From NCBI GenBank assembly GCA_051006215.1, contig JBPCIO010000141.1, forward strand, positions 50,455-114,454: a stretch of 64,000 nucleotides of DNA, in the 5' to 3' direction. Both the position numbers and the translations under genes were made by a program. Shown here piece by piece: positions 1,515-59,973 of the stretch; position 1 is the stretch's first letter, and every line of letters starts with the position of its first letter. Origin of the DNA: Chloroflexota bacterium (GTDB lineage Bacteria; Chloroflexota; UBA6077; CF-72). The notes under the pieces were generated by a model. That model was not told where the DNA came from and searched no databases. It was given only the letters and a program-made list of their open reading frames with translations.

Positions 1515-2288
1515 TCACAAGCCAGCCAGACGAGACACCCAACCTGGGACAGACGACGCGCTGCCGTTCATCACTACTCCACGCAACTTGCCCGGCTCGA
1601 TCTGCTCGACCGCGCGTTGGTGCAACGCGATCGGCGTGATACCCGCGCGAACGACGCAGATCACGCCGTCGGCCAGGTCCGTCAGCAGGATAGAGTCGCT
1701 GTTGACGAGGATGGCTGGCAAGTCGAGGATGATTATGTCATAGCTCTGCCGCATCGCATCCACGACGGCAGCCATGCGACTGGAGCGCAGCGGTCGGCCA
1801 GGTTCATCCGCAGCCACACCGGCTGGCACGACGTGGAAATTCTCCAGGAATGTCGGCCGACAGGCACTGAGCAGCGGCTCCTCATGCACGAGGCAGTCGA
1901 TCAGGCCAGGGCTAGGGTGCGTACCGAAGTCCTCGGCCAGCACGGGGTGCTGCAGGTCGGTCTCGACCAGCAGCACGCGCCGCTCTGGGAAATCCTGAGC
2001 AATGGTTACCGCGAGCCCAACGCTGACGGTGGTCTTGCCCTCGCCCGCCAGGGCGCTGCAGACGGCCAGTACTTCTGACGAAAAACCAGCTCCAGCCCGA
2101 GTGTAGATACTCCGAAAGAGCTCGTCGGCATCGGGAAACACCCATTCCCGAGAGCCATCACTGCCATTCGCCAGTGCGCTGCTCCGCCTGGAGCGTAGCC
2201 AGGTGTCGGGTCGCGACTCGTCGTCCATGGGCGCCTCGAGCAAACCTGTAGCCGCTTCGCTATTGTCGGAATGGGCAATCGTCGTCAT
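1515..2288 (-). CDS. Tyrosine-protein kinase (BY-kinase) ATPase component, CpsD/CapB/EpsB-like
   Basis: Walker A GEGKTT and Walker B IIILDLPA are present, in a MinD/ParA-type P-loop fold typical of capsule/EPS BY-kinases. The ATG at 2288 overlaps the upstream stop (ATGA). Confidence 0.8.
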   Translation of the reverse strand: MTTIAHSDNSEAATGLLEAPMDDESRPDTWLRSRRSSALANGSDGSREWVFPDADELFRSIYTRAGAGFSSEVLAVCSALAGEGKTTVSVGLAVTIAQDFPERRVLLVETDLQHPVLAEDFGTHPSPGLIDCLVHEEPLLSACRPTFLENFHVVPAGVAADEPGRPLRSSRMAAVVDAMRQSYDIIILDLPAILVNSDSILLTDLADGVICVVRAGITPIALHQRAVEQIEPGKLRGVVMNGSASSVPGWVSRLAGL

Positions 2289-3373
2289 GACTTTGTCCCG
2301 ACGGCCGGCAATGCCATGCCAGCGGTTGCTCCGATAGCTCGGCGCGTGGCCCCGTATCGCAGCTTCTTCGGGACATTCTTGAGATTCAGGAGCGGAACTG
2401 ATCCAAGTAGTCGGAGTCCGGGTGCCAGATCCGTCTCGGAGCGGACCGACCGATCGCTTGCTACCAGGAGCACCATGAGCATCCCACTCAGCATGAGTCC
2501 GGCGATGGCAGCTGCGATCGGAAAAATGACGACCTTCTTGACTTGATTGGTGGGCGCTGTCGGAAGCTCGGGTGGGTCCAGCACCTGAAACCCGTACTGC
2601 AGGCCCTGCACTGACGCCACGGCATCCTGCTGTGCTCGGGTCAGCGCGGCTTCGGCGCTGTTGAAATCCAACTGCGCCGCCTGGACGTTGGACTGAAGGG
2701 CGCTCAGCTTTGGGTCGAGCATCGCGGCCGAGACCGCACCCGCGGCGCGGTCGGGCGAGAGGTCCGCACCATCGGCCTCGCGCGCTGATGTATACCGACG
2801 TAGGTCGCCACTGGCTTTGGTGAGGGCCTGCTGTGCGTCCTGCACCCGCGATTGATAGAAGTCAACTGCCACTCCGGCCTGGTCCGACTGGTCCGCTGCC
2901 GTTTTTTCCTGATAGGCATCCACAATCGACTTGCACAGCTCATACGAAAGCTGCGCAGTTGGTGCTGCAACCTTGATCACAAGGAGGTGCTCGCTCGTGT
3001 TCGGGCCAGTTCCTCCAGGTGCACTGCCGATGGTTACACCCTGCGCGATCAGCGCAGACAGGCGGGCTTGGCCTGCCACGGAGTTGTTCGCCGCAGCCAG
3101 TGAGGTGCGCGAGGCGACATCGGCGACGAAGGCGCGTGTGCGCAACAGTTCGCTCAACCGGCCCGTCTGGGTTTGCACCTCAGTCACCCACGGCGTAGCG
3201 GTGTCTTTGGTAGTCAGGTAGGCAGGCCGGTCAATCCAGACACTCACCGACGTCTCGTAGACGGGTGGGTTGGCCATCACGGCGAGCGGGCTGACAATGG
3301 CTGGAATGAGGACCGCCGGCAGTAACAGCAGCAATTTATGTTTGAAAAATGTCTCGAGTAGTTTCCTAATCAC
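2285..3373 (-). CDS. Polysaccharide co-polymerase / chain-length determinant (Wzz/CpsC-like) partner of the BY-kinase
   Basis: Short N-terminal segment, then a TM helix (LLLLLPAVLIPAIVSPL), a long coiled-coil periplasmic region and a C-terminal TM helix. The gene is immediately upstream of the kinase with an ATGA overlap. The start is chosen as GTG 3373, overlapping the upstream TGA (GTGA); the ORF track's ATG 3490 would overlap the upstream GT gene by 120 nt. Confidence 0.7.
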   Translation of the reverse strand: MIRKLLETFFKHKLLLLLPAVLIPAIVSPLAVMANPPVYETSVSVWIDRPAYLTTKDTATPWVTEVQTQTGRLSELLRTRAFVADVASRTSLAAANNSVAGQARLSALIAQGVTIGSAPGGTGPNTSEHLLVIKVAAPTAQLSYELCKSIVDAYQEKTAADQSDQAGVAVDFYQSRVQDAQQALTKASGDLRRYTSAREADGADLSPDRAAGAVSAAMLDPKLSALQSNVQAAQLDFNSAEAALTRAQQDAVASVQGLQYGFQVLDPPELPTAPTNQVKKVVIFPIAAAIAGLMLSGMLMVLLVASDRSVRSETDLAPGLRLLGSVPLLNLKNVPKKLRYGATRRAIGATAGMALPAVGTKS

Positions 3374-4503
3374 GCGGCCCTCCTGGAAGCTGGTCGAGCT
3401 ACCACTAGCTCTCCGATGAGGTCCAGTAGAAGTCGGTTGTTGCGCTGAGCATCGAATTTCTGTCGCGCCAAGGCGAACCCGGCTCGGCACATACGCTGTC
3501 GTCGGGCCGGGTCGTCGATCAAAGCAGTGAGCGCCGCAGATAACGCGGCATCATCGCCTGCAGGAATGATCAGGCCAGACTGCCCCGGCCGCACGCCTTC
3601 GGTCTGGGCGCCCACGTCGGTCGTAATCACGGGCAACGCCGCAGCTGCAGCTTCCATAAGTACCAGACCTAAACAATCGGCATTGGTTGGCAAGACGAAT
3701 AGGTCCGCTTCCACGAACAACCGTTGGAGTGCGGGGCTATTCGCCTGTAGACCCCGATGTGTGACGACATTCGGCTGCGCTGGCACCTCGAAGTTTGTCG
3801 CAATGTGGAGTTCACAGCGGCGGCCAATCGGGCCCCGCATAGCTTCCAGCAAGGCTGGGCCACCTTTGCGATGGAAGTCATTACCGACGAAGAGGATGCG
3901 TACCGGACCTTCGCGCCGCTCGCCCTCGGGTGCCGACAAGCGGGCATGCCCAACATCGAAAAAGGAGGCTGAGGCACCGGGCGCCAGTACCCGGACTCGA
4001 TGGGCATCGACTCCGTAGTCGTCGATAAGCGAGCGACGTGCCCACTCAGACCAGGTCACCAGGCCCGCGGCGGCATGAAAGGCGCGCCAATTCATCTTGT
4101 ATTTCTGACGATCGATGACACCCGTACCTGCTGGACGGTGATTGTAGTGTTTGCCCAACGTGTCATAGTTGATGGGTGTAGCGTCGAGCGAAATCAGGGT
4201 TGGCACACGACGCATCATGTTGATCGAAAACAGCGACGCGACCTGTGTGTGGAAGACGACGGCGTCGAGCGGGGTTCGCGCCATGGTCGCGTCCAGGGCC
4301 CGCCGAGCGCGCCAACTCGCCCGAACCGACCACGTGTTGCGTAACAGGGGCACGAAGCGCTCCGGGCCGCTCACGTCGAACGGGATCGGCAGCCAAACTG
4401 GATCAATATCGCCCTGCCGATCCGTGAGTTGGCGCAAGTTGTGATAGTGGGTCACGTGGCCGAGAGCCTGTTCCATCACAAACGCGATTCGAGTGGCCGG
4501 CAC
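3370..4503 (-). CDS. Glycosyltransferase family 4 (GT-B, Glycos_transf_1)
   Basis: 377 aa with a C-terminal GT4 motif region (FVLPTNADCLGLVLMEAAAAALPVITTDVGAQTE, E-X7-E like). GTG start at 4503. Confidence 0.8.
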   Translation of the reverse strand: MPATRIAFVMEQALGHVTHYHNLRQLTDRQGDIDPVWLPIPFDVSGPERFVPLLRNTWSVRASWRARRALDATMARTPLDAVVFHTQVASLFSINMMRRVPTLISLDATPINYDTLGKHYNHRPAGTGVIDRQKYKMNWRAFHAAAGLVTWSEWARRSLIDDYGVDAHRVRVLAPGASASFFDVGHARLSAPEGERREGPVRILFVGNDFHRKGGPALLEAMRGPIGRRCELHIATNFEVPAQPNVVTHRGLQANSPALQRLFVEADLFVLPTNADCLGLVLMEAAAAALPVITTDVGAQTEGVRPGQSGLIIPAGDDAALSAALTALIDDPARRQRMCRAGFALARQKFDAQRNNRLLLDLIGELVVARPASRRAA

Positions 4504-4650
4504 TACGCAGCCTCCCTACCGGCTGGTACCCAAGCCAGGTGCAAACAGCGGGAGCTGCACAGCGTTCCCTTGCACGCGCACACCCGCAACTCTTCCCTCA
4601 TCGCGTCCGACATTCTGGTGGCGACCGGCATCCGAGACCGTGTTTCCAGG

Positions 4651-4667
4651 GTTGCGATTCGGTTGAC
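4651..4667 (-). promoter_or_regulatory. Degenerate copy of the 11-bp-spaced direct repeat upstream of the GT4/Wzz/BY-kinase/Wzy operon
   Basis: Plus-strand GTTGCGattcgGTTGAC, which reads on the minus strand as GTCAACcgaatCGCAAC. It lies about 150 nt upstream of GTG 4503. Confidence 0.25.
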
Positions 4668-4696
4668 TGACGCGTCACCCACCTCGCGGCGCGTCA

Positions 4697-5227
4697 TTAT
4701 GGCCGCACCAACTGGACGATCATCCCGTCGAAAATCGACTTCCGGTCAGCAGGTGCGTCGAGCGCCAGCGAGACCAGAATGAGCAAGAGCACCGCCACCG
4801 CGGCTACCATAAGGAGTCCCAGAACGGCTGGCCCGTTCAACGCCGCCAACCGACCCTCCACTGGCCGCTGCTGGAGGGGCAGCCCACGGGCAGCGCCGAA
4901 TACGGGCGCCCGTGGAATGGCGCCGACGCGGCTGGACTGACGCATGCGTTCATGCCGGTGCGCGCGCAAACACTCCAGGTCGTAGCGTGCACGGCCGCTG
5001 GGATCACTCAACACTTCGTAGGCGGCGTTGAGCTGTCGGATGCGGCGTGCTGCCCCCGGCGCGGCATTCACATCAGGATGGTAAGAGCGAGCCAGCACAC
5101 GGTACGCCGCCTGGATTACCTCCTGGCTGGCCCGCGGACTGATTTCGAGAAGCTCATATAAATCGATCAGGTGGTGTGGTTCGGCGGTGCCAGCGGGCGG
5201 CTCCCGGCTTGGCACGTCGTGCGCCAT
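4697..5227 (-). CDS. J-domain (DnaJ-like) protein with a C-terminal transmembrane anchor
   Basis: N-terminal J domain (DLYELLEISPRASQEVIQAAYRVLARSYHPDVN ... AYEVLSDPSGRARYD) including the HPD tripeptide. A single C-terminal TM helix (VLGLLMVAAVAVLLLILVSLAL). The ATG overlaps the upstream stop (TGATG). Confidence 0.7.
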   Translation of the reverse strand: MAHDVPSREPPAGTAEPHHLIDLYELLEISPRASQEVIQAAYRVLARSYHPDVNAAPGAARRIRQLNAAYEVLSDPSGRARYDLECLRAHRHERMRQSSRVGAIPRAPVFGAARGLPLQQRPVEGRLAALNGPAVLGLLMVAAVAVLLLILVSLALDAPADRKSIFDGMIVQLVRP

Positions 5228-7134
5228 CAGGCTGGCCCGGCCATGACCATTTGACCCTCACTCAAGCCACTTACGATCTCCACGCCGGCGCCAGTCGTGA
5301 TGCCGACCTGTACGCTCACCAGTCGGCGGATCGTGCCGTCTTGAACTTCAACCGTATTGCGCCCGCCGCTCTGGTGAACTGCACTTTTCGGAACCACAAG
5401 GACGTCCTGTTTTGAGCCGAGGTTGACAGCCACCTGGACTGGCGTGCCCAGCTTGGGCACCTGGCTATCGGCCCAGGCTACGTTCAGGACCGCCGAGGCG
5501 TCCACGCTCCCATCTTGGGCTGCGGGCGTGACGCTGGCGAGCTGGGCTGGCACAGTTGTCGCCGATGCGCCCGTACCGATTTGAATACTTGCCGTCTGCC
5601 CCACGTTAATGCGCCCGGCTTGAGTGTCATCAAGGTCGACGCGCACGATCGGCGGCCCTGGCCTCGCCAGAATGACCACAGGTTTGGATGGGACCGGCAT
5701 TTCGCCTGGCCTGGCCCTAACCGAAACGACTGTCCCATCAAACGGCGCTCGCAGGTGCGTGTTTTCCAGCGACGCCTCTGCTGCCGCTACGTCTGCCTGG
5801 TCCTGGCTGATGACCTGCTGCAAAGGACCAAGGTCGAGTCCCGCGGCAGCCATCGCTGGTGTGACTTCACGCGCATTGTCCAGCACTACCTGGGCCGCAC
5901 GAACCTGATCCTGGGCCTGATTCAGCTCGGCCTTGGTCGGATGACTGTAGACCTCATCGCGTGCCCCCGTAAGCTGGGCGAGGCCGCGCTTCGCCGCCTG
6001 CATCTGGCGTTGTGCGGCGTCGATGGCGGCCTGATCTGGACCCGCTTGGAGCGCATCCAGCCTGTCCTGGGCGTTCTGCACGGTCGTTTGAGCGTCGATG
6101 ACTTTGAGCTGGGCAGCCTGCACGTCGACCTCCGCTGGGGGCTGCTTGAGCTTGGCGAGCTGAGCCTGGGCATTGTCCAGGCCGGCCTGTGCCTCCTGAA
6201 TCGCATTGTCATTCTGCATCTTGGCCACTGTGGAATCCGGTGCTTTAGGGTCGATCTTGGCGGCTTGGGCCAGCTGCAGCACGGACTGCGCCCGCAGCAC
6301 CGCCGTCGTCGCGGTGCGCACGGCCAACGCATCCGGGCCTCGGGTCAGAGCATCGAGATCAGCCTGAGCTCTGCTCAGCGTAAGCTGCGCATTTGCGACA
6401 TCGCGCTGAGCTGCGCGGATTGTATTGTCGTCCGGTCCAGCCATGGCCAGGTCCACCGCGTTTTGCGCGGACGCCATGTTCGTCGCCAGGTACTCAGTGA
6501 CGGCCGCGTCGGCGGCCTGCTTCTCGGTCGCTGATTTGCCAGCTTGTACCTTGGCCAGGTTCTCCTGGGCTCGGGTAACTGCAAGCTGCGCGTCCAGCAC
6601 TGCCTGCTGTTGCTTCTTCTGTTCGGCGGCCACACGCTGGGCGATCTCGTCCTGAGACGTTTGCGCCTGGGTTTGGGCTAGCGCGAGACTTGCCGTATCT
6701 ACCTGGAGCTTCGCACGCGCCGCGGCGAGCTTTGCCGGAATCTCGCCTTGGCTGAACTCAACCAGGATGTCGTCCTGCTTCACCGGTTGGCCAGCCTTGA
6801 CCTTCACATCGTCGACGATAGCGCGCCAGGCATAGTTGATCGGCTCCTGCGCCGGAGCGGTGGCCGTGCCGTCGAGAGCAAGTGTCTCGGTCAGGCTATT
6901 GCGCGTGACCGGGACAAATCGCACCCCACCCGTCCGCACCTTGACCGGGGTGGCCGTCGCGTTGGCCGTGTCTTGCCCGGCGATGGAGGCTGGTTGGCCT
7001 AGGCCGGCAGCGGTGTCTGAGTCCGCACCGGACTGCACCAGGGGCAAACTGATTGGGCCACATGCGGCAGAAGCGCCGATCGCCAGCAAGCTCAGAGCAG
7101 CCAGAGAGGTCGCCCTCCACAATCGAATAGCCAT
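5227..7134 (-). CDS. HlyD-family periplasmic adaptor-like lipoprotein with a very long Ala/Gln-rich coiled coil
   Basis: Lipoprotein signal with lipobox (LLAIGASAAC). Strong GAGGGG Shine-Dalgarno 9 nt upstream of ATG 7134; the ORF-track start 7218 is an N-terminal over-extension. The C-terminal beta-barrel/lipoyl-like region is typical of HlyD/membrane-fusion proteins. The central region has repeated GPD...AQ...LDAL hairpin-like units. Confidence 0.65.
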   Translation of the reverse strand: MAIRLWRATSLAALSLLAIGASAACGPISLPLVQSGADSDTAAGLGQPASIAGQDTANATATPVKVRTGGVRFVPVTRNSLTETLALDGTATAPAQEPINYAWRAIVDDVKVKAGQPVKQDDILVEFSQGEIPAKLAAARAKLQVDTASLALAQTQAQTSQDEIAQRVAAEQKKQQQAVLDAQLAVTRAQENLAKVQAGKSATEKQAADAAVTEYLATNMASAQNAVDLAMAGPDDNTIRAAQRDVANAQLTLSRAQADLDALTRGPDALAVRTATTAVLRAQSVLQLAQAAKIDPKAPDSTVAKMQNDNAIQEAQAGLDNAQAQLAKLKQPPAEVDVQAAQLKVIDAQTTVQNAQDRLDALQAGPDQAAIDAAQRQMQAAKRGLAQLTGARDEVYSHPTKAELNQAQDQVRAAQVVLDNAREVTPAMAAAGLDLGPLQQVISQDQADVAAAEASLENTHLRAPFDGTVVSVRARPGEMPVPSKPVVILARPGPPIVRVDLDDTQAGRINVGQTASIQIGTGASATTVPAQLASVTPAAQDGSVDASAVLNVAWADSQVPKLGTPVQVAVNLGSKQDVLVVPKSAVHQSGGRNTVEVQDGTIRRLVSVQVGITTGAGVEIVSGLSEGQMVMAGPA

Positions 7135-7263
7135 ATCGCCTAGTCCCCTCTCTCGCCGCCCATTACGCGACCTCACAGCCCCGACGCCGAGCGCTGTACT
7201 TCTCATTGGCACCTGCACGTGATGCTACGCACGGGCCGTTGAATGCGGTGATGTCGTGGATTG

Positions 7264-7287
7264 GTTGAGCATTGAGAATTGGTTGAG
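7264..7287 (-). promoter_or_regulatory. Triple CTCAAC repeat upstream of the HlyD-like lipoprotein / J-domain operon
   Basis: Minus-strand reading: cctCTCAACcaattCTCAATgCTCAACcaatcc. It lies 130-150 nt upstream of ATG 7134. Confidence 0.4.
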
Positions 7288-7304
7288 AGGCCAACGCTTC
7301 GGTG

Positions 7305-7931
7305 TCAGGCGGCGTACCACGCCGCGATGCGCGGAAACAGCGTATGCGCCAGCGCGGCGACATCGTCGTTTAGGCGTGGATCGAGTGGGTCCGTTTGAGC
7401 GGTCAAGTACAGTTTGTAGTAGTCGTTCGGGCGACCCAGGATGGCATCGAATACGGCCAGGCTCCAGGGCAGCGGCCCGTTACCGAGGAGTCCGCGGCGC
7501 TCCCCGTAGGCGTACATGACGAGCCAGTGCTGCTGGCCCTGCTCGGCTATCAGGCCGCTCACCCCGTCGCCAACGCCTAACTGCGGATCACCAGACGCCG
7601 GCTCCACGGTGTACCCGCCCCCCAGGAACGGCACCTCGGCCCCCGAGCCGTACAGCTTCGGCGCCTGGTTTGAAAGAACCGTCAACGTGGCCGTGCCGCG
7701 ATCAGAGCTACGGTACACACGCGAAACTTGACGCGTGGCCAAACCCGCGTGGTTGGTGTTTTCTTCGACGACTTCGCCGCCCACCGCCCACGGCTGGACC
7801 TGGTACAGGTCGTCGGCCACTGGCCAGCGCGCGGCTCCAGCGCCAGGAGGCTCGCCGGCAGCCGCGTAGAGTCCGGCGCTGATCAGTAGCCCTGCAATCA
7901 GAATGAAGTAGCGATGGTGGGGAGTTTGCAT
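7305..7931 (-). CDS. Exosortase-associated EpsI-like protein (putative)
   Basis: About 200 aa with an N-terminal TM/signal segment (YFILIAGLLISAGLYAAA). It lies immediately downstream of the exosortase gene and overlaps it by about 33 nt, the usual position of EpsI in exosortase loci. The assignment is by context and size, not by a diagnostic motif. Confidence 0.45.
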   Translation of the reverse strand: MQTPHHRYFILIAGLLISAGLYAAAGEPPGAGAARWPVADDLYQVQPWAVGGEVVEENTNHAGLATRQVSRVYRSSDRGTATLTVLSNQAPKLYGSGAEVPFLGGGYTVEPASGDPQLGVGDGVSGLIAEQGQQHWLVMYAYGERRGLLGNGPLPWSLAVFDAILGRPNDYYKLYLTAQTDPLDPRLNDDVAALAHTLFPRIAAWYAA

Positions 7932-8770
7932 CCAACGGTCCGGCTCAACACGAGCAGGCCCACCACAGCCAATCCAAACAGGACCAGGCTGGATGCGCCA
8001 TGAAAGAACCCGAGTGCAGCATCCTGGCCAAAGTCGGCGGCAACCACAAGGACCAGGGTCACACGCAGGGTATTGGCGAGGATCACCAGGGGCACCACGC
8101 CCAGGAACACGGCCAGCTTGCCTGGCAACGGTCCTCGAGTGGCATAGATCCAGAGTGCAGCCACGGACAGCAGAGAAAGCAGCGAGCTCATGCCTGAACA
8201 GGCCTGAGCCACCACGAACGCGTACTGGGGCGTGTCAGCTGCCGAATGCAGTAACAAGCCATCCCGAACCACGTCCAAGCCGATGGCATGTCCGGACAGC
8301 GCGGCGCCTTTGGCTGTCACGTCCTGCAGAGCGAATCCGACCGAATTGAGCAAGCCGCGGTACAGGCCTAGGCCAAACACCAGGAATGAGGCCGGAAATG
8401 CCACGATGCGTGCTGCGCGCCAGCCCCACAGGTAGACGACTACGCCGACCAGCAGCGGGCTGACTGCGAGTCCGGCCAGCGTGTTGATCCCGGTACGGCG
8501 GCTGACCAGTGTCACAAGGATCGCCCCGGCCACCATCAGCAGCCCTATGCCACTGCCCGCGCCGATACTGCGTCGTAGGGCGCCGCGGCGCCACCCCACA
8601 ATGGCTAGCGCAATTGGAGGTATGACAAACCCATATGTGAACTCCTCGTCTGTCGACCACACCTCGACCGCATGAGCGAAGGCCGGGTAGACCACGACGA
8701 CGAGCGCCAGGATCAGCCCCAGCCGGACGACTACTGCCCACCCACGGCCGCGGGCCAGGACGGTTGGCAT
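7898..8770 (-). CDS. Exosortase (EpsH/Xrt family) transpeptidase
   Basis: 290 aa, 8 predicted TM helices. Conserved N-terminal motif region (VWSTDEEFTYGFVIPP, variant of W..D..YSHG.L.P). Catalytic Cys in AQACSGMSSLL. Conserved Asn/Arg in ILANTLRVTL. ATG at 8770. Confidence 0.75.
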   Translation of the reverse strand: MPTVLARGRGWAVVVRLGLILALVVVVYPAFAHAVEVWSTDEEFTYGFVIPPIALAIVGWRRGALRRSIGAGSGIGLLMVAGAILVTLVSRRTGINTLAGLAVSPLLVGVVVYLWGWRAARIVAFPASFLVFGLGLYRGLLNSVGFALQDVTAKGAALSGHAIGLDVVRDGLLLHSAADTPQYAFVVAQACSGMSSLLSLLSVAALWIYATRGPLPGKLAVFLGVVPLVILANTLRVTLVLVVAADFGQDAALGFFHGASSLVLFGLAVVGLLVLSRTVGCKLPTIATSF

Positions 8771-8774
8771 AGGC

Positions 8775-10286
8775 TCAGTATGCGCCGCGGCTGGTCAGCA
8801 CCGCGGGGATCGTCCGCAGCAAGATCTCGAGATCAAGTGCCAGCGACCAGTTCCGGATGTAATGCAGGTCGAGTCGGACCATGTCATGGAACGGCACCTC
8901 GCTGCGGCCGCTGACCTGCCAGAGACCCGTCAGACCAGGCACGGCACGCAACCGGCCCAGTTGCCAGTCTTCATACTGCTCAACCTCGGCTGGGAGCGGC
9001 GGGCGCGGTCCAACCAGGCTCATCTCACCTTTGAGCACGTTCAACAACTGCGGAAGTTCATCAAGGCTCCAGCGGCGAAGGAGGCTGCCTACGCGTGTCA
9101 CCCGTGGATCGCGTCGCATCTTGAACAGTGGGCCAGACGCTTCGTTGTGCTGCCGCAGCGTCTCGAGACGATGCTCGGCGTCCGCACACATCGAGCGAAA
9201 TTTCAACATCTTGAAGCGCTGCCCGTCCTTGCCTACGCGATCTTGGCGGTAGAACACCGGTCCAGGCGAGTCAAGCTTGATCGCTACGGCGATGATCGAC
9301 AGGACCGGCGCGAGGACGATGAACCCCGCACTCAGCACGACCAGGTCCATTGCGCGTTTGACCCAGCTCACTGCCGCAGCCGGCATGTAGCCGATGTACT
9401 GCCGGCCGCCAAAGGTTTGGACATGGAAGCGTTCCGGCAGTCGTCCACCTAGCTCGGGCAGGAGTTTCACCTGCACGTGACGCCGAAAGCCGCGCGCCAG
9501 AACGCCGCTGACCTGTTCGCGGCGGCCGCTGGGTAGGGCGATGATGAGCTCGTCGACAGCGTACGCCTGGACCATATCTTCAAGTTGAGCAATCGGACCG
9601 AGCAGTGGCAACTCGAGAGTCTCGAGGTCACTGCCGTTATCCACGTAGCCGACCACCTCGTAGCCAGTCTTGAGCTCGTCGGCCAGTTCTCGGCCCAGGC
9701 GATTGGCGCCGACAATCAGCACCCGATTGGCTGGGAAGAGCGCGTCGCGGAGCACTTGATATAGGCGATGCGCAAGCGCTCGCCAGATGACCAATGCGGT
9801 CACCGAAATCGCCCACCCACTGACTAACCAGAGGCGCGAGAATGCCTGGTCGCCCAGGAAGTACGAGGCGCTGAAGCCCAGCACCAGCCCCGTAGAACTT
9901 GACGAGGCAATGCCCCGCAGGCGAAACGGCCAGGGCTGAGGTCGTTCGAGGTCGTACAGGCCGTGCGTAGCAAGGAGGGCACTCGTGAACAGCCCTACGA
10001 GCGCGGCCAGACGGATGTAGCGGTCCAATCCGAGCGTGGGCAAGCTGTCGTCGGCGGCGAACCGTCCGACATAAGCCAGCATGAAGGCACTCGCTACGAA
10101 GACCACGTCGGCGACGGCCACACAGGCACTGCCCAACCCGGGGAGCACCCGCCGGCGACGCCTGTTGATGGTTGCGCTGGAGCGTTGCTGAGGTGCCTCG
10201 TCGGCCCACACGCTCGGGTCGTCGGCACGTAGTTGGGCGGTGCTCATACTGGCGAGCTGTTGCGCGCCACACGGGTTGCTATCCAT
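8775..10286 (-). CDS. Polyprenyl glycosylphosphotransferase (WbaP/EpsB-like initiating sugar-phosphate transferase)
   Basis: N-terminal TM helices, a CoA-binding-like central domain, and a C-terminal bacterial sugar transferase domain (KFRSMCADAE...LDELPQLLNVLKGEMSLVGPRP). The start is uncertain: the ORF-track TTG is at 10403, and in-frame ATGs lie at 10286 and 10247. Confidence 0.8.
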   Translation of the reverse strand: MDSNPCGAQQLASMSTAQLRADDPSVWADEAPQQRSSATINRRRRRVLPGLGSACVAVADVVFVASAFMLAYVGRFAADDSLPTLGLDRYIRLAALVGLFTSALLATHGLYDLERPQPWPFRLRGIASSSSTGLVLGFSASYFLGDQAFSRLWLVSGWAISVTALVIWRALAHRLYQVLRDALFPANRVLIVGANRLGRELADELKTGYEVVGYVDNGSDLETLELPLLGPIAQLEDMVQAYAVDELIIALPSGRREQVSGVLARGFRRHVQVKLLPELGGRLPERFHVQTFGGRQYIGYMPAAAVSWVKRAMDLVVLSAGFIVLAPVLSIIAVAIKLDSPGPVFYRQDRVGKDGQRFKMLKFRSMCADAEHRLETLRQHNEASGPLFKMRRDPRVTRVGSLLRRWSLDELPQLLNVLKGEMSLVGPRPPLPAEVEQYEDWQLGRLRAVPGLTGLWQVSGRSEVPFHDMVRLDLHYIRNWSLALDLEILLRTIPAVLTSRGAY

Positions 10287-10446
10287 GCAAGCGGCGGCAG
10301 TCCGCTCAATAACCAGAGTGATCCCCAGACCACGCCCGTGGCCACCATGAGCAGGCCTGTGGTTAGCCCACCCGAGCAGTTTTCCTTGTCCTGCTCGTTC
10401 CAACCAAGGTCCCCAGACAGGCCGGCCGTTTGCAATCTCGCGTCCA

Positions 10447-24460: not shown

Positions 24461-26005
24461 ATGCTCCGCGTCATCGCCGGCATCGGCGCCCTTCAGGTTG
24501 CCGTAACCCTCGTCAACATGCTTCGGTCGAAGGCAGTCGCCATTCTCCTCGGCCCGGAAGGGGTTGGGGTGATCGGCCTGGTCGACCAGCTCGTGCAGCT
24601 CGTACTGTACGTGAGCACGCTCAGTCTGCCGTTTGCGGCTGTCCGCTTTCTCTCGCGCGCCCACAGTGAAGGCCACGCAGCGTTTGCTCAGAGCTTTGGC
24701 AGCTTCTTGCGGGCGCTGCTCATGTTGACCACCATCGGCGCAATTATCGGCGGTGGACTCGCGGTGTTTCGCCCGGACCTTCTCGGCCAACAGCTGTCCG
24801 ATTACCGCACGTTCCTTATTCCGGCCCTGGTCGGAGTCCCGGCCATGGCACTGCACGGATTGTTCAGCAACGTTCTGGCCGCCGCCCGCCGCACCCGGGC
24901 GGCGGCGCTCATGGCGATGGTCATCGCGCTGACGCTCTCCGGAGCAACCGTGATCGGCATTCTGCTGGATGGGGTACGCGGTTTTTACTGGGGTGCCCTC
25001 ATTGCGAATGTGCTGATAGCGGTCGGTGTGGCAGTCTACCTGCGGCGGAGTTTGAACCTGCTCCTGTTCGGCCGCGACCACGGCGTCCGCCAGGAGCTGC
25101 GCAAAAATCCGGACATCTTGCCGTTTGCGTTCTGGTTCTACGGGGGATCGCTCGCCTATTCGTTCGCCTTCTTTGTGGCCCGCTACGCCGTACTGTCGAA
25201 TTTCGGGGCAGCCGAGGCCGGGCGCCTTCAGGTCGGGATCGCCCTGTATACGGCCCTCAATCTCGTGCTCGGACCAGCCAACGGACTGTATCTCACGCCG
25301 ATTCTGAATCGACGCATCCCCCTGGTCGAGAAGTTCGCCGCCGCGCTTGAGTTTCAGCGCAAGCAATGGCTGGTCATCCTCTTGCTGGCTATGGGCATGG
25401 TGCTTTTTGCGCACCTCGCAGTGGTCGTCCTGTTCTCGACAGCTTTTCTGAGCGTGGCCGGCGTCGTGGCTCTGTTCGTGATAGCGCAGACCATTTATCA
25501 GTTGGCCGCCGTCTTGCAAGCCCTGATAATCGGCCTCGACGACCTGCGCCTGTACGGGACGACCGCCGTCGTCGGCCACCTTGCTCTCGCTGGTCTAGCC
25601 TGGGTGCTGGCACCGTCTTTGGGAATCATGGGGGTCGGCATAGCGTTCCTGGTGAGCGCCATACTCCACGTGGCGATGACCTTCTCGCGTCTGCGCCTGC
25701 ACTTCGGGATGATGCTGTCGCGCCGGCACGTCGTCGCAGTCGTGTACGGCATCGGGGCCCTGGCGCTGGCAGCGCTACTCACCAGTTCGCTCGATCCCTG
25801 GCAACCGCAGGGGATAGCGGTCCGCATCCTGGCGTACGTCGCCTTTGCGGTCAGCCTGCTCGCGCTGCTCGAGGGTCGCGAGCTTCGACAACTGGTCGTA
25901 CGCGGCCAATCCGTCTGGTTTCCCCAAGGCACGGAGCGCGTGCCCAGGATGGGTGGGGCGACCTACCGACGTCTGACCCGACGCTTCTTCCCCGAAGTCT
26001 GGTGA
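24461..26005 (+). CDS. Wzx-type polysaccharide flippase (MOP/PST family)
   Basis: 514 aa with about 12-14 predicted TM helices, matching the polysaccharide-biosynthesis-protein (MOP superfamily) architecture. Confidence 0.8.
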   Translation: MLRVIAGIGALQVAVTLVNMLRSKAVAILLGPEGVGVIGLVDQLVQLVLYVSTLSLPFAAVRFLSRAHSEGHAAFAQSFGSFLRALLMLTTIGAIIGGGLAVFRPDLLGQQLSDYRTFLIPALVGVPAMALHGLFSNVLAAARRTRAAALMAMVIALTLSGATVIGILLDGVRGFYWGALIANVLIAVGVAVYLRRSLNLLLFGRDHGVRQELRKNPDILPFAFWFYGGSLAYSFAFFVARYAVLSNFGAAEAGRLQVGIALYTALNLVLGPANGLYLTPILNRRIPLVEKFAAALEFQRKQWLVILLLAMGMVLFAHLAVVVLFSTAFLSVAGVVALFVIAQTIYQLAAVLQALIIGLDDLRLYGTTAVVGHLALAGLAWVLAPSLGIMGVGIAFLVSAILHVAMTFSRLRLHFGMMLSRRHVVAVVYGIGALALAALLTSSLDPWQPQGIAVRILAYVAFAVSLLALLEGRELRQLVVRGQSVWFPQGTERVPRMGGATYRRLTRRFFPEVW

Positions 26006-32012: not shown

Positions 32013-32178
32013 GCCTTGCCCTCCAGAGCTTTACCGTCGCACGAACCTGCTCGCGCAATCCCACGCTCGGAAGCGTTGCAAGCGCGCGTCTTGACCGCTG
32101 TTGGAGGTCGGTTGCGAAGTAGTTGGCCTGCAAGTCTCTACCGTGGGTCAACCAGCGCTCTACGGACGGCCGAGCAGC

Positions 32179-33993
32179 ATGGCCTACTGTGCTCGTCAGA
32201 TGTCCCACACAGGGTCGGCGCTCGTGGACCAACTGGCCGCGGCGGGCCGCCAGAACCCCACACTGCCGACCATCCGCAGCGTCGCAGATGCTCCTTTCGA
32301 TTGGTGCCGACGCAACGTCACGGCTGCATGGCTGATGGTCGCCGTAGTCCTCGGCCTGCTGCAGGCGGCGTACTTCCGCGACTTCATCAATCCCGACGGC
32401 ATTGCGTACCTCGACATGGGCGACGCCTATCTGCGGGGTGATTGGCTGACCGCCATCCGCGGCCACTGGAGTCCTCTGTATGCATGGCTGATCGCCGCGG
32501 TGGTCCGAGTCCTCCAGCCACCGCCCAGCCTCGAATTCCCGCTCGTCCACGTGGTAAACGCAGGTATCTACCTGGTTGCCCTGGGGACCTTCACGTTCCT
32601 GCTGCGTCAGATCGAAGCCACGCTCAGCACTCCTGCTCTCACGAGCACCGCCGCGCAGGCGACCCGCTTGCCGGCTTGGGTCTGGAAGTCTCTGGGTTAT
32701 GCGGTCTTCCTGTGGTGCACACTGCGATACGGTCTGCTGGAACTGGTGACACCGGACCTTCTGGTGTCGGCGCTGGTCTACGCAATTGGAGGGGTTGTGT
32801 TGCGGGTGCGGCGAAGGTCCGGATGGCAGTCATCGGTGCTTCTGGGCGCGTTGCTCGGGCTCGGGTACCTTGCCAAGACCCCCATGTTGCTGCTGGCGCC
32901 TGTATTCGTGGCCGCCAGCGTTTTGCTCATTCCGGGGCGTGCCAAGCGGCTCGTACACGCAGGTCTCACGCTGTCGGTACTGGCCCTGGTAGCAATCCCA
33001 TTCGTGCTAGTGCTGTCGCTTGCCAAGGGCAGGCTGACGGCTGGCGACAGCGCGATGCTGAACTACCTCTGGCTCGTCGACGGAGTGACGCCCTACCTTC
33101 ACTGGCAAGGAGGCCCCGCAGGGTCAGGTCAGCCCGTGCACCGGGACCAGGTTCTGTTGGAGCAACCAGCCGTCTACGCCTTCGACAGCCCGTTCTGGGT
33201 CACCTATTCGGCCTGGTACGCGCCTGATTACTGGTACGAGGGCGGCACACCTCACTTCGTTCTCAGCGGGCAAGTCCGAGCGATTCTTGGCGGACTGACG
33301 GTGTACGAGAGCATGGCGAAGCAGCTTGCTCTGCCGTTGGTGGGGACTGCCGTGCTGGTGTTGATGCGGCCACGGGGTTGGAGCTCAGGATTTGCACCAG
33401 CGTTGACCTTGATTGCTCCATCGATTACCGCACTCTGCATGTATTCGATCGTGATTGTGGAGGAGCGCTACGTGGGGCCCTTCGTCGTCCTGTTGTTTGT
33501 CGCGCTACTCGGTTTGATGATCCAACTGCCGTTATCCAAGTGGAGTCGCACCGTCGTCACCGGCGTAGCGGCCGTGATGCTGGTGTCGCTGATGCTCCCA
33601 GCGGGTAAGGCTGCATCCGAACAAGGGAGCTCCGTTAGCACGGACGTTACTCGTGACCACCTCCTTGCGCCAGACGAGCAAGCGCAAGTCGCTATGGGCC
33701 TCCGAGCGGCTGGTCTTCAGCCAGGTGACCCGGTGGCTAGCGGGGGTCGCGCTATCGACGACGCCTGGGCACGACTGGCTCGCGTCAGAATCGTGGCCGA
33801 AGTAGGCGACCGGGAGGGCGCGACCATGCTTGCCACGGATGCGGACGCACGCGCACGGGTGCAGGCGGCGCTTCTGCAAACCCATGCCGCGGCAATCGTA
33901 GCCCGCGACTGGCCAGGGCTCACCGGCGACCCAGGCTGGGTTGGTATAGGCGGCACGAGCTACTTCTATTACCTCATGCCCAGTCGGTCGTAA
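32179..33993 (+). CDS. GT-C-like multi-pass membrane glycosyltransferase (putative)
   Basis: About 12 TM helices with periplasmic loops. It is divergent from the DPM1-like gene. The start is uncertain (ATG 32179 or 32203); the ORF-track TTG 32101 is less likely. Confidence 0.55.
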   Translation: MAYCARQMSHTGSALVDQLAAAGRQNPTLPTIRSVADAPFDWCRRNVTAAWLMVAVVLGLLQAAYFRDFINPDGIAYLDMGDAYLRGDWLTAIRGHWSPLYAWLIAAVVRVLQPPPSLEFPLVHVVNAGIYLVALGTFTFLLRQIEATLSTPALTSTAAQATRLPAWVWKSLGYAVFLWCTLRYGLLELVTPDLLVSALVYAIGGVVLRVRRRSGWQSSVLLGALLGLGYLAKTPMLLLAPVFVAASVLLIPGRAKRLVHAGLTLSVLALVAIPFVLVLSLAKGRLTAGDSAMLNYLWLVDGVTPYLHWQGGPAGSGQPVHRDQVLLEQPAVYAFDSPFWVTYSAWYAPDYWYEGGTPHFVLSGQVRAILGGLTVYESMAKQLALPLVGTAVLVLMRPRGWSSGFAPALTLIAPSITALCMYSIVIVEERYVGPFVVLLFVALLGLMIQLPLSKWSRTVVTGVAAVMLVSLMLPAGKAASEQGSSVSTDVTRDHLLAPDEQAQVAMGLRAAGLQPGDPVASGGRAIDDAWARLARVRIVAEVGDREGATMLATDADARARVQAALLQTHAAAIVARDWPGLTGDPGWVGIGGTSYFYYLMPSRS

Positions 33994-55779: not shown

Positions 55780-56463
55780 CTAGCCGCGGGATAGGCTGTA
55801 GCCTACCCCTAGCACCGCTTTGATGCCGCGCTTGCCGCTTGGCGCGAGCGACAGCTTTTTACGGATGTGGCAGATGTGGGTCTTGAGCAGGTTCGAGTTG
55901 CCCTCGTCGTAGTAGCCCCAGGCGTACTCGATCAGCCGCGAGTAGGGGATGATGCGACCCTCGTTGAGCGCCAGCATATACAAGATGCGAAACTCGAGCC
56001 GGGTCAGCTGGACTGGCTTACCGGCTTTGGTCACTTCGTGCGACTGCAGGTCGAGGACAAGGTCGCCAACGCTCACCTGACTGGCTGGCTGACGGTAGGG
56101 ATCCGTCTGGCAGCGGCGCATGACCGCCTTCATCCGCGCAGCCAACTGCTTGGCGCTGAACGGCTTGGTCATGTAGTCGTCGGCACCGATCTGCAAGCCG
56201 CGCAGGATGTCCTCTTCCTCGTCCCGCGCCGTGAGCATGATGATCGGCGTCTTCGACTCGTGGCGAATGCGGCGGCAGACCTCGAATCCGTCAATCTTGG
56301 GCAGATTGCCGTCCAACAGGACGATATCCGGACTCTCACTCTCCCAACGTTGCAGGGCCTGCTGGCCGTCGACAGCCGCGAGTACGTTGTAGCCTTCGCG
56401 CCGCAGCGCGTAGGTCATCAGATCCAATAAATCAACGTCGTCGTCGACGACCAAAACCTTCAT
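55780..56463 (-). CDS. OmpR-family response regulator
   Basis: Receiver domain (VLVVDDD...DIVLLDGNLPKIDG...KPF) plus a winged-helix Trans_reg_C domain. Confidence 0.85.
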   Translation of the reverse strand: MKVLVVDDDVDLLDLMTYALRREGYNVLAAVDGQQALQRWESESPDIVLLDGNLPKIDGFEVCRRIRHESKTPIIMLTARDEEEDILRGLQIGADDYMTKPFSAKQLAARMKAVMRRCQTDPYRQPASQVSVGDLVLDLQSHEVTKAGKPVQLTRLEFRILYMLALNEGRIIPYSRLIEYAWGYYDEGNSNLLKTHICHIRKKLSLAPSGKRGIKAVLGVGYSLSRG

Positions 56464-56485
56464 GTGGGGAATCCTTGTCTTTGGG

Positions 56486-57301
56486 TTAGGAAACGATGCT
56501 CAGGTGCGATTTTGCGGCTAGGCCTCGAGCATTTGCGGGGATGGAAAACCAGAACCGAGCGCCACCACCACGGCGGCTCTCGACGCCCACGTCGCCGCCA
56601 TGGGCTTCGACGATAGACTTGACGATTGACAGGCCGAGGCCCACACCGTCCTTCCCACTATCGGCAGTTGCCGGGTCTCGATAATAGGGTTCGAACAAGC
56701 GATCTGCCTGGTCTGGCGAGACGCCAGGCCCGCGATCCGCGACGCACACCCGCACCGCACCAGGGCGAATCGAGATAGACAGGTCAATGGGTGTCTTGGC
56801 ACTGCTGAATTTGCTCGCGTTCATAATTAGATTGATGAGCACCTGGCCCAGGCGGCGGCTGTCTGCCAGCACTTCGGGCAGGCCGGCGCCGATGCGAACC
56901 CGCAGGCGCTGCCCGCGCTGCGCCAGGAGCGGCCCGACCACGGCATCGACATCGGCAAGCAGGTCCGACACGCTCAGCGACTGGCGGTACAGCTTCAGCC
57001 GACCTTCCAGAATTGTGGCGGCGCACAGCAGGTTCTCCACCAGCCCTTGCAGCCATAGCGTGCGTCGGTGCATCGCGCCCAACATGCTTTTGATCTGTTC
57101 GGGGTCTAGCTGCAAGAAGTCTTCTGCCAGTAGCTCGGACGACTGGGCCAGAGCGGTCAGCGGCCCACGCAACTCATGCGCCACGGTCGCAAGGACGGTG
57201 AGCTCATGCGCGGGTTGGGGTAAAGAAGGAGTGTTCAAGGCTTCAGGTAGGACTGGGGTGAGTCGCATGCTCGTCGCGGACCACTCTTGCGCCATATGCA
57301 T
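56486..57301 (-). CDS. Sensor histidine kinase (cytoplasmic, HisKA + HATPase_c, no obvious sensor domain)
   Basis: H-box AHELRGPLTAL. N-box LINLIMNASKF. G-boxes DRGPGV and GVGLGLSI. ATG 57301 is preferred; the ORF-track start is 57373. Confidence 0.8.
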   Translation of the reverse strand: MHMAQEWSATSMRLTPVLPEALNTPSLPQPAHELTVLATVAHELRGPLTALAQSSELLAEDFLQLDPEQIKSMLGAMHRRTLWLQGLVENLLCAATILEGRLKLYRQSLSVSDLLADVDAVVGPLLAQRGQRLRVRIGAGLPEVLADSRRLGQVLINLIMNASKFSSAKTPIDLSISIRPGAVRVCVADRGPGVSPDQADRLFEPYYRDPATADSGKDGVGLGLSIVKSIVEAHGGDVGVESRRGGGARFWFSIPANARGLAAKSHLSIVS

Positions 57302-57802
57302 TTTCAAGTCCAGGGGATCATACGTGTAGAACACGTAAAGCCTCGTAACAGAGACCGTGACAATGCCGTACAAGCGGCTGGCCGGGTTACAGGCGCGTTA
57401 CAAAACGACGTGGGGGTTGCGGGCGCGTTCACTTCGAGCCCGGGCCGGCGCCCTGCCGTCGTCAGGGTGCGCGCCATCTGCAATTTTCGCCTGGTCAACA
57501 GATTGCTAACGCGGCGTGAACTCATTCGCAACACCTGGCTCGCCGGCAGCGACGCTCAAGGGCGCCGGGTGGTTGAGGCAGTCGCGGTTACGACCCGGTA
57601 GCGCCCCAGCGCAGCGGTCAAGGCAAGTGTGGTTCATACCTCCGCCACGATTTGATCGAGTAGCACACTGCCGGCATGGCAGATCTGGCACTCAACTGGC
57701 AGCCCGCAAGCTGAGCCTCGGCGAGTGCATGCCGCACTGAAGCTCTTCCGCGACCGCTCCTCGAATCGTGGCTGCTGGCATTCTGGGCGATGGCCGTCGT
57801 GC

Positions 57803-58567
57803 TCAGTCGACGTGGCCCGGGCCGGATTCTGAACCCGGACCCGTGCTGCCTGGCTCGTCGTCTTCGGCGCTGAGCCTGACGCCGACGCCAGGGATGGTAT
57901 GCAGCAATTGCGGCCGCGCGGGATCCTGTTCGAGCTTGCGGCGCAGGCGGTGGACCGTCACCCGCACCACGTCCGACCCGCCTGGATCGTTGTAACCCCA
58001 CACCTGCGTGAGCAGCGTGCCCGTCCGAACCACCGTTCCAGCATTGGTCATGAGGCAGTGCAGCAAGCGAAACTCGGTCACCGTCAGACTCACCGCCTGG
58101 CCCGACTTGGTGACCGAGTGTTGAGCCAGATCGAGGGTGATACTGCCAACTTGTAGCCGCATCTCGGGCGCGCGCCGCACGGGCATTTCGCGACCACTAC
58201 GGCGGAGATGCGCACGAATTCGGGCCACCAGCTCGCGATGACTGAATGGCTTGGTTAGGTAGTCGTCGGCCCCGGCCTCCAGGCCACGTACCTTGTCTTC
58301 TTCGGAATCCAGAGCGGTCAACATGATGACCGGCAGTTGCGAGCGGCGGCGCAGCTCCTTGAGCACCTCCAAACCGCTAGACGCGCCCAGGTTGATGTCC
58401 AAGACGACCAAATCGGGTGTTCGTTCGTCGAGCAGACGCAGCGCGGTCACCGCGTCGTGAGCTCCAATCGGGTCCAGGCCGGCCCGTTTGAGCGCAAACG
58501 CCAGCAGGTCGATCAGCTCGCGGTCGTCGTCAACCAGCAGAATGCGCACTGCGCTTCGCGTCCTCAT
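57803..58567 (-). CDS. OmpR-family response regulator
   Basis: ILLVDDDRELIDLL...DLVVLDINLGASSG...KPF, followed by a winged-helix domain. ATG 58567 is preferred; the ORF-track 58807 start is an over-extension. Confidence 0.8.
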   Translation of the reverse strand: MRTRSAVRILLVDDDRELIDLLAFALKRAGLDPIGAHDAVTALRLLDERTPDLVVLDINLGASSGLEVLKELRRRSQLPVIMLTALDSEEDKVRGLEAGADDYLTKPFSHRELVARIRAHLRRSGREMPVRRAPEMRLQVGSITLDLAQHSVTKSGQAVSLTVTEFRLLHCLMTNAGTVVRTGTLLTQVWGYNDPGGSDVVRVTVHRLRRKLEQDPARPQLLHTIPGVGVRLSAEDDEPGSTGPGSESGPGHVD

Positions 58568-59780: not shown

Positions 59781-59973
59781 AACTCACCTGAATCCCCATC
59801 CGTCCTCAACCATCACGTTTGCCTCGCCATGCAACTCTCTACCTTCCGTGGCCACTGGCGCACGCCCAACCGAGGAGGCCCAAGAAGCGGGTTGATCATG
59901 CTTAGTACCTACACCTGGATACGTTTGCCAAGCCGATCCGGTTCAGACGCTCAGCCACGGTTGCGGGCAGACC

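Follow-up and report, generated by a model that had tools for sequence, protein, structure and literature searches.

A tail-anchored J-domain protein paired with a greatly lengthened periplasmic-adaptor lipoprotein in a Wzy-type exopolysaccharide cassette of Chloroflexota

Single-pass membrane J proteins such as Pam18/Tim14 and Sec63 place an Hsp70 chaperone at one membrane machine. In bacteria, DjlA has been functionally tied to the production of capsule (colanic acid), and with DnaK it switches on the synthesis of this capsule via the Rcs system. It belongs to the class C partners of DnaK, and the tail-anchored proteins DjlB and DjlC work with an Hsp70 (HscC) at the membrane (PMC8215388). 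Among polysaccharide systems, Alg44 is a co-polymerase that resembles membrane fusion proteins (MFPs, or periplasmic adaptors) and carries a cytoplasmic regulatory domain (PMC4436075). Here, two adjacent genes were analyzed in a stretch of 64,000 nucleotides (nt) from an uncultured member of Chloroflexota (assembly GCA_051006215.1, contig JBPCIO010000141.1, positions 50,455 to 114,454), which is called the window below and supplies all positions given without another source. An original prediction, made by a model from the letters of this stretch and its open reading frames (ORFs), had singled out these genes as a membrane-anchored J-domain protein and a long coiled-coil lipoprotein; L and P numbers are our own handles for loci and proteins.

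The lipoprotein gene, which encodes a long adaptor, occupies positions 7134-5227 of the minus strand, and the gene of the J-domain protein follows at 5227-4697 on the same strand; every gene from position 1 to about 14.9 kb of the window is on the minus strand, including all cassette features described below. The coordinates were correct in the original prediction, as was the J protein length of 176 amino acids (aa), while the 636 aa ascribed to the adaptor are 635 aa plus the stop codon. The overlap of the two genes that had been noticed is seen at 5229-5225 (minus strand), where the adaptor TGA (5229-5227) shares 1 nt with the J ATG (5227-5225) in the string cTGATGg. Because the NCBI start of the J protein is a GTG 12 nt downstream and four codons later (P0121, 172 aa), the spacing is either a 1-nt overlap (-1) or an 11-nt gap (+11), depending on the choice of J start. 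The same 1-nt overlap also occurs in L173, and gaps of 2-39 nt are found in other loci. A Shine-Dalgarno-like run (GAGAGGGGA) lies 5' of the ATG at 7134, which is the best adaptor start, and a promoter and terminator scan of positions 4400-7400 gave nothing above shuffles. The two genes form an operon arrangement.

The association between the two genes is conserved well beyond this contig. About 57 full-length adaptor relatives at 30-69% identity were found, all of them from metagenomes or metagenome-assembled genomes (MAGs) of Chloroflexota. One database protein (P0001), encoded on a 142.5-kb contig of a Chloroflexota MAG, matches the window at 100% identity. In each locus examined from the adaptor side, down to 35% identity (P0011, P0027, P0006, P0045, P0025, and L006 and L007, the last two from species-representative MAGs), a J gene was present 2-39 nt downstream, and five loci approached from the J side (P0188, P0214, P0160, P0122, and P0227) had the same arrangement or a long adaptor nearby. 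A metagenome scan with the J alignment gave 80 loci, which were scored jointly with the earlier loci; in total, a long-adaptor ORF directly precedes 43 distinct J sequences, drawn from genomes and metagenomes. Where similarity to the J protein of the window extends through the transmembrane (TM) region and at least 400 nt of upstream sequence are present, the long adaptor was seen directly upstream in 29 of 32 cases. In L092, one of the three exceptions, the long adaptor is full-length (E 2e-70) and lies two genes before J, in a different cluster with the order ABC exporter, NTP_transf_5, 254-aa protein, adaptor, GT1, and J. The adaptor of this locus (L092, 1-13155) has 723 aa, asparagine-synthase-like genes are found nearby, and this was the sole locus seen with a candidate transporter partner.

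Two negative controls delimit the association. A scan of genome contigs with the adaptor profile, using a generic C-terminal pattern, returned two true orthologues (L006 and L007) and 78 ordinary adaptors, which were reused as a control set; none of these 78 loci (L008-L085) contained a J ORF. Similarly, no adaptor was present upstream of J genes in the 37 loci whose similarity was confined to the J domain. The co-occurrence of this J protein with the long adaptor is strict and specific, and the pairing, which had been called unusual, is syntenic across related genomes in dozens of loci. In one locus (L091 7945-9964, GCA_963738395.1), two overlapping reading frames take the place of a single adaptor gene, and the gene of the priming transferase is likewise broken up; these splits look like frameshift errors of the assembly rather than real pseudogenes.

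The J domain covers residues 22-83 (4979-5164, minus strand) and matches PF00226 with E 3.7e-20 over profile positions 1-63 of 63, with a score of 72 bits against a cutoff of 27.8. The HPD loop that had been reported is present as H50-P51-D52 (5080-5072, minus strand; codons cat, cct, and gat), and alignment of 33 orthologues showed that H50 and D52 are invariant, that P51 is kept in at least 90% of them, and that the complete motif is intact in 31 of the 33. The helix II residues Y42, R43, and R47 are also invariant in this set. In the AlphaFold2 model, which was built on the 33 orthologues, the J-domain helices span residues 23-26, 35-48, 59-74, and 76-103, with predicted local distance difference test (pLDDT) values of 93-97 in 10-residue blocks. 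It might be argued that the protein is non-functional, either as a degenerate J-like domain of the Pam16 type or as a mis-called ORF, since HTD replaces HPD in two orthologues (P0128 and the L088 protein) and the start codon is uncertain by four residues. This reading is largely refuted and very improbable: besides the Pfam score, the motif conservation, and the model confidence given above, a profile search of 1.84 billion representatives yielded 161 proteins at E <= 1e-30 (clusters at 50% identity), and nearly all of them are 150-210 aa long and align from the J domain through the TM region.

The 176 aa contain no Pfam match other than PF00226, and there is no G/F region, no zinc finger, and none of the DnaJ C-terminal domains; DnaJ equivalog models cover residues 22-90 only, with scores far under their cutoffs. 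By these features the protein is assigned to the class C J-domain proteins (Hsp40), and stimulation of an Hsp70 ATPase is predicted for it. The J domain is 43% identical to that of Escherichia coli DnaJ (by comparison with a hand-entered DnaJ sequence), and its closest counterparts among solved structures are the J domains of DnaJ2 and CbpA. Given this DnaJ-like character, DnaK is the likeliest Hsp70 partner, and an HscC-like Hsp70 is possible.

Only one strongly hydrophobic stretch (about residues 132-156) is found in the J protein, which lacks an N-terminal signal. It corresponds to the single C-terminal TM helix described in the original prediction (residues 132-156, 4760-4834, minus strand; Kyte-Doolittle 3.2), is kept in all 33 orthologues, and is modeled as a helix with pLDDT of about 90-98. 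Residues 104-131 form an Arg-rich linker that is disordered in the model, as is the 20-residue tail. Summed over the 33 orthologues, the 20 residues N-terminal to the helix contain 100 Lys and Arg versus 48 Asp and Glu, whereas the 20 residues C-terminal to it contain 25 versus 100. Since this charge bias fits the positive-inside rule, the J domain is predicted to be cytoplasmic and the tail to lie outside, on the adaptor's side of the membrane (N-in, C-out). The outside tail of about 20 residues is poorly conserved save for acidic residues, and a conserved Trp/Asp is located at the outer end of the TM helix. An identity as DjlA was rejected, as the NCBIfam model NF006948 gives 21.7 bits against a cutoff of 162 and covers the J domain only, and the TM helix is C-terminal.

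The family of this J protein is confined to uncultured, mostly soil, Chloroflexota. Longer relatives retain the J domain, linker, and TM helix and add an ectodomain of LysM (P0359), DUF4850 (P0355), or Cys-rich type (P0324 and P0342), and other longer members carry tetratricopeptide repeats, pentapeptide repeats, or multiple J domains; P0241 (679 aa) has six tandem J domains. Because LysM and other ectodomains follow the TM helix in these relatives, an arrangement in which a cytoplasmic J domain is joined by one TM helix to a module outside is a recurrent one, and in the J protein of the cassette the outside module is cut down to a short tail beside a separately encoded adaptor. Such a sensor-like layout would also suit signalling of the kind known for DjlA, in which the J protein senses the adaptor or the envelope through its TM helix and tail and, with DnaK, tunes the kinase-like ATPase, the priming transferase, or a two-component system. 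The induction of colanic-acid capsule by DjlA and DnaK through Rcs, and the presence of OmpR-type regulators and histidine kinases near the cassette both here and in L001, speak for this possibility. On the other hand, the tail is short and little conserved beyond its acidic residues, no regulator gene is consistently adjacent, and the DjlA model fails by a wide score difference, so signalling is regarded as rather improbable.

The adaptor begins with a lipoprotein signal peptide, MAIRLWRATSLAALSLLAIGASAAC (7060-7134, minus strand), with a hydrophobic window at residues 8-33 and the lipobox Cys25 codon at 7062-7060. Of the 30 family members that include an N-terminus, 28 have a Cys at lipobox position 25 after a basic n-region and a hydrophobic h-region, which bears out its earlier description as a lipoprotein. 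Pfam matches (HlyD_3, HlyD_D23, and Biotin_lipoyl_2) are weak, and RND_mfp (TIGR01730) reaches E 8e-25, slightly below the NCBIfam cutoff. A profile of 32 adaptor orthologues matched TriAB, MacA, MexJ, and EmrA in the PDB at E 1e-33 to 1e-21 (TriAB/MacA at about 1e-32), and the alignments to MacA and TriAB extend to residue 632. Structural matches to the AlphaFold2 model (pLDDT 81.7) were MacA, AcrA, EmrA, and MexA, with a Foldseek probability of 1.00 for MacA and AcrA, and YknX_C and CzcB_C are among the precomputed Pfam domains. In the model, residues 1-68 are disordered (a tether after Cys25), the lipoyl (barrel-sandwich) domain is split into 72-127 and 460-500 by a helical insert, and a beta-barrel (514-581) and a membrane-proximal domain (586-632) follow, which are the features of the periplasmic adaptor superfamily. 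The original label of HlyD type needs correction: the protein is nearer to four-domain adaptors of the MacA/AcrA/YknX type than to the HlyD of type I secretion. Identity with the latter was rejected, since TIGR01843 scores 17.8 against a cutoff of 208.65 and the N-terminus is a lipoprotein signal, not a cytoplasmic domain with a TM helix.

The helical insert comprises 326 residues (132-457; 5764-6741, minus strand), as delimited by DSSP analysis of the model, autocorrelation, and composition. Nine helices of 67, 31, 29, 23, 29, 29, 29, 22, and 22 aa are predicted in it, and residues 130-440 contain 24% Ala and 14% Gln. The original description of an exceptionally long stretch, rich in Ala and Gln and built from recurring GPD..AQ..LDAL units, is correct for this helical region, as is seen from a 33-residue periodicity with z = 6.4 (lag-33 autocorrelation versus 200 shuffles), corresponding to about seven units with boundaries at GPD 233, 266, and 365, APD 298, PPA 332, and HPT 398. 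Tandem Repeats Finder detected nothing in the adaptor DNA, and the periodicity is visible at the protein level only. Because the longest loop (292-300) sits at the exact midpoint of residues 132-457, the model would allow a single segmented hairpin whose arms, of about 160 residues each, would by arithmetic span up to about 240 Å if extended; a zigzag of 29-residue helices is also possible.

Such a long, aggregation-prone coiled coil in a secreted precursor raises the possibility that the J protein is a private biogenesis co-chaperone, which hands the nascent adaptor precursor to DnaK so that it is kept unfolded near Sec and which has no later role. DnaK is known to guide secreted and membrane proteins (PMC8215388). 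The adaptor-first genes are translationally coupled or tightly spaced, and the J gene follows the adaptor rather than other cassette genes, even in the rearranged cluster of L092. However, the adaptors of L087 and L089 are equally long and have no J gene, and a purely cytoplasmic role in holdase targeting would call neither for a conserved TM helix with a conserved Trp/Asp at the outer end nor for an acidic tail, although an anchor near Sec would still help. This explanation is considered unlikely, yet it deserves to be kept in mind.

The pair sits in the core of a conserved Wzy-type cassette. The order of genes was established by phmmer mapping of window proteins onto 16 loci together with tables of called genes, and 14 loci, with adaptor identities from 35% to 69%, share the order epimerase, GT1, GT2, WecG, a protein of about 80 aa, priming transferase, adaptor, J, Wzz-like protein, P-loop kinase-like protein, a 48-aa ORF, and Wzy_C; a protein of about 210 aa, an exosortase, and an EpsI-like protein (between priming transferase and adaptor) and a GT4 (after J) are optional. 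The exosortase and EpsI genes are missing from L001/L117, L003/L004, and the P0214 locus, and the GT4 gene from L001, L094, and L117, and the adaptor-J pair is retained in all of them. The idea that the pair is an exosortase accessory was rejected, because it persists without exosortase and EpsI. The pair had been placed at the edge of an exopolysaccharide island, but glycan genes flank it on both sides, reaching the window start on the Wzy_C side and continuing on the other side with about 45 kb of glycosyltransferase genes, to about 52.8 kb.

Upstream of the pair (all on the minus strand) are the priming polyprenyl glycosylphosphotransferase (Bac_transf, 8775-10403; TIGR03025 E 5e-124), the exosortase of the EpsH family (7898-8770), which is missing in some orthologous cassettes, and the EpsI-like DUF3485 protein (7305-7931), whose match (E 2.5e-5) falls just short of the cutoff and for which PF11984 is weak in an orthologue. 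Downstream, the minus strand carries the GT4 glycosyltransferase directly after the J gene (3370-4503), a Wzz-like chain-length determinant or polysaccharide co-polymerase with an uncertain start codon (2285-3490; TIGR03007 E 4.5e-13), a P-loop (AAA_31) ATPase resembling co-polymerase kinases (1515-2288), the 48-aa ORF with two hydrophobic stretches (1352-1498), and a Wzy_C polymerase/ligase-like membrane protein that is cut by the window start (1-1340). The 48-aa ORF has no Pfam match and is conserved, with the kinase-like gene on one side and Wzy_C on the other, at this position of at least 11 related cassettes (phmmer E 1e-5 to 1e-23). The P-loop protein is annotated by similarity as a polysaccharide tyrosine autokinase, with its best NCBIfam match under cutoff, and ends in ...NGSASSVPGWVSRLAGL; because it lacks a C-terminal tyrosine cluster, it may not autophosphorylate as bacterial tyrosine kinases (BY-kinases) do. 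The exosortase passes the general EpsH model and is under the cutoff of every named subtype (XrtA 135 versus 208), and no PEP-CTERM-like sorting signal (a hydrophobic stretch and a basic tail) ends any ORF of at least 100 aa in the window. In L086, L088, and L090, an unannotated gene encoding about 206-236 aa precedes the exosortase, and its product could be an exosortase substrate.

Among the scanned window ORFs (at least 180 aa, over the 64 kb), there was no Pfam match to ATP-binding cassette (ABC), resistance-nodulation-division (RND), or major facilitator superfamily (MFS) transporters, to Polysacc_synt, or to Hsp70; no transporter match (ABC/RND/MFS) occurs in the conserved cassette of the 14 loci, and no Wza-type protein was detected at this locus. 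These results bear on whether the adaptor serves a conventional tripartite-type exporter, working with an unlinked ABC, MFS, or RND transporter for polymer, glycolipid, or protein, with the J protein as a co-inherited neighbour. Characterised adaptors all work with such transporters, the nearest relatives are MacA, TriAB, and EmrA, and an ABC exporter lies three genes upstream of the long adaptor in L092. Nevertheless, besides the lack of transporter matches, the adaptor-J adjacency outlasts the loss of exosortase and GT4 as well as cluster rearrangement, which is unexpected for a mere neighbour, and a conventional exporter is thus thought quite improbable.

Long adaptors also occur in other glycan clusters. 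P0055 and P0056, at 32-35% identity, have no J gene beside them, and their neighbours include a priming transferase, a Wzz-kinase fusion, and genes of heptose type. Because such distant long adaptors lie in glycan clusters without J, the tie of the long adaptor to glycan synthesis is older and wider than its tie to the J protein. The Chloroflexota cluster of L087/L089, which differs from the cassette and whose long adaptors are distant (32-35% identity), contains SIS/GHMP-kinase heptose-type genes, a Wzz-ATPase fusion, and a BNR-repeat protein, with a nucleotidyltransferase in L087.

The explanation favored here, to which we would give somewhat less than an even chance, is that the gene pair is a dedicated module of the Wzy-type exopolysaccharide machine, in which the J protein recruits DnaK to an adaptor-based, wall-spanning part. 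The adaptor would have expanded its helical domain two- to three-fold by amplifying a 33-residue helix-turn unit and, anchored by lipid, most likely oligomerises outside the cytoplasmic membrane, by analogy with Alg44 and the hexamers of MacA, AcrA, and EmrA. The oligomer could then act as a scaffold or conduit that moves polymer from the Wzy/Wzz-like complex through the wall. The J protein most likely binds the adaptor, or the complex of the adaptor, via its TM helix and tail, and its HPD loop would trigger ATP hydrolysis by DnaK at that spot. Hsp70 would thereby be brought in for assembly, remodelling, or quality control of the exporter on its cytoplasmic face. The locus thus suggests a chaperone recruited to a sugar-polymer export machine, and the link of Hsp70 to the assembly or regulation of an export apparatus that the original prediction had put forward fits all the evidence, which consists of gene context and predicted topology.

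Several points weigh against this explanation. No J-adaptor fusions, which would be Rosetta-stone evidence of contact between the two proteins, were found among the 120 best-ranked homologues of the adaptor and the 150 best-ranked representatives of the J family. Since there is no J gene within 10 kb of the distant long adaptors in L087 and L089, the J protein is not generally required for such adaptors, and HTD stands in place of HPD in the two orthologues mentioned. The cassette encodes no inner-membrane transporter partner, such as every characterised adaptor has. The conduit idea is drawn by analogy. In addition, Hsp70 binds polypeptides rather than glycans. Oligomerisation of the adaptor and its role as a conduit, the contact between the two proteins, the part of DnaK as partner, and the target of DnaK are all best taken as working proposals.

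A bolder form of the module is conceivable, in which the J protein and the adaptor are a trans-membrane pair and Hsp70 ATPase cycles control the assembly or gating of a wall-spanning conduit that replaces the Wza-type outer component in the Wzy-dependent pathway of Chloroflexota. It must be regarded as speculative, with a small chance of being right; if true, it would represent chaperone-gated polysaccharide export and the first bacterial adaptor with a co-chaperone, and not a transporter, as its cytoplasmic partner.

What is new at this locus is a constant partnership, in which a tail-anchored J protein goes with a greatly lengthened adaptor inside a Wzy-type cassette; each protein by itself belongs to a known superfamily, the class C J-domain proteins and the periplasmic adaptor proteins, respectively. 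The observation itself is solid and would surprise specialists moderately. A literature search on J domains or DnaJ in connection with exosortase, exopolysaccharide, Chloroflexi, or membrane fusion proteins gave nothing relevant and no publication on this pairing, and no dedicated Pfam or NCBIfam model exists for the J/adaptor family, which current annotation hides under the names 'J domain-containing protein' and 'HlyD family efflux transporter periplasmic adaptor subunit'. Most bacterial class C J proteins are without a known client, and an operon-fixed partner offers a concrete place to seek a role of membrane-tethered Hsp70. Besides, the exit of Wzy-type polymers from cells without a Wza-type channel is poorly understood, and the lengthened adaptor, conserved in the core of such a cassette, is a candidate for the extracytoplasmic component that is missing; more distant relatives are located in other glycan clusters of Chloroflexota.

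The surrounding region is also rich in glycan genes. Between 10447 and 52800, on both strands, the island contains genes for GT1/GT4, GT2, GT10 (fucosyltransferase-like), GT87, and three PMT_2-like proteins (one weak), as well as two Acyl_transf_3 proteins, two methyltransferases, an AsnB-like amidotransferase, a polysaccharide deacetylase, and a DegT aminotransferase. Neither a Wzx-type (Polysacc_synt) flippase nor an ABC transporter was detected in this interval; a 514-aa ORF (24461-26005) has no Pfam match, and a 630-aa ORF (32101-33993) has a weak PMT_2 match only. Beside the island, at 55780-60789, are three OmpR-type response regulators and two histidine kinases, and three response regulators and one histidine kinase are located just upstream of the cassette in L001.

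With regard to architecture, the closest precedent for the J protein is DjlB/DjlC, in which the J domain is likewise N-terminal and cytoplasmic and one anchor lies at the C-terminus, and which are thought to bring Hsp70 to membrane proteins (PMC8215388). The layout, which the original prediction had rightly described as the reverse of DjlA, is therefore not without precedent. DjlB and DjlC differ in being much larger, in being encoded beside hscC, and in their link to Cd2+ tolerance, whereas the protein described here has 176 aa and a DnaJ/CbpA-like J domain, is linked to an adaptor within a glycan cassette, and has no Hsp70 match among the window ORFs that were scanned. DjlA shares with it the membrane anchor, class C membership, and probable partnership with DnaK, but has an N-terminal TM helix and a C-terminal J domain, and its gene is not in a polysaccharide operon. 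As to the eukaryotic Pam18/Tim14 and Sec63, their machines move polypeptides gripped directly by Hsp70, glycan export has no such substrate, and there is no homology beyond the J domain.

For the adaptor, MacA, AcrA, EmrA, and YknX offer the same arrangement of a lipoyl domain split around a helical insert, a beta-barrel, and a membrane-proximal domain, with an N-terminal lipid or TM anchor. The present protein stands apart by its length, as MacA, AcrA, and EmrA have 371-401 aa in total and the 635-aa adaptor has a 326-residue insert, and by its setting, with no ABC, RND, or MFS partner nearby, a Wzy-type cassette, and a J partner. For the two proteins together, a close parallel is Alg44, in which an MFP-like extracytoplasmic coiled coil in a polysaccharide complex is linked across the membrane to a cytoplasmic regulatory domain (PMC4436075). 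The idea of a split Alg44-like gene was rejected, because the adaptor gene precedes the J gene and its product starts with a lipoprotein signal of its own. Alg44 is one polypeptide (PilZ-TM-MFP-like) of a synthase-dependent pathway regulated by cyclic di-GMP, and the likeness drawn here is one of architecture; in the pair described here, the cytoplasmic J domain is carried by a separate polypeptide and the pathway is of the Wzy type.

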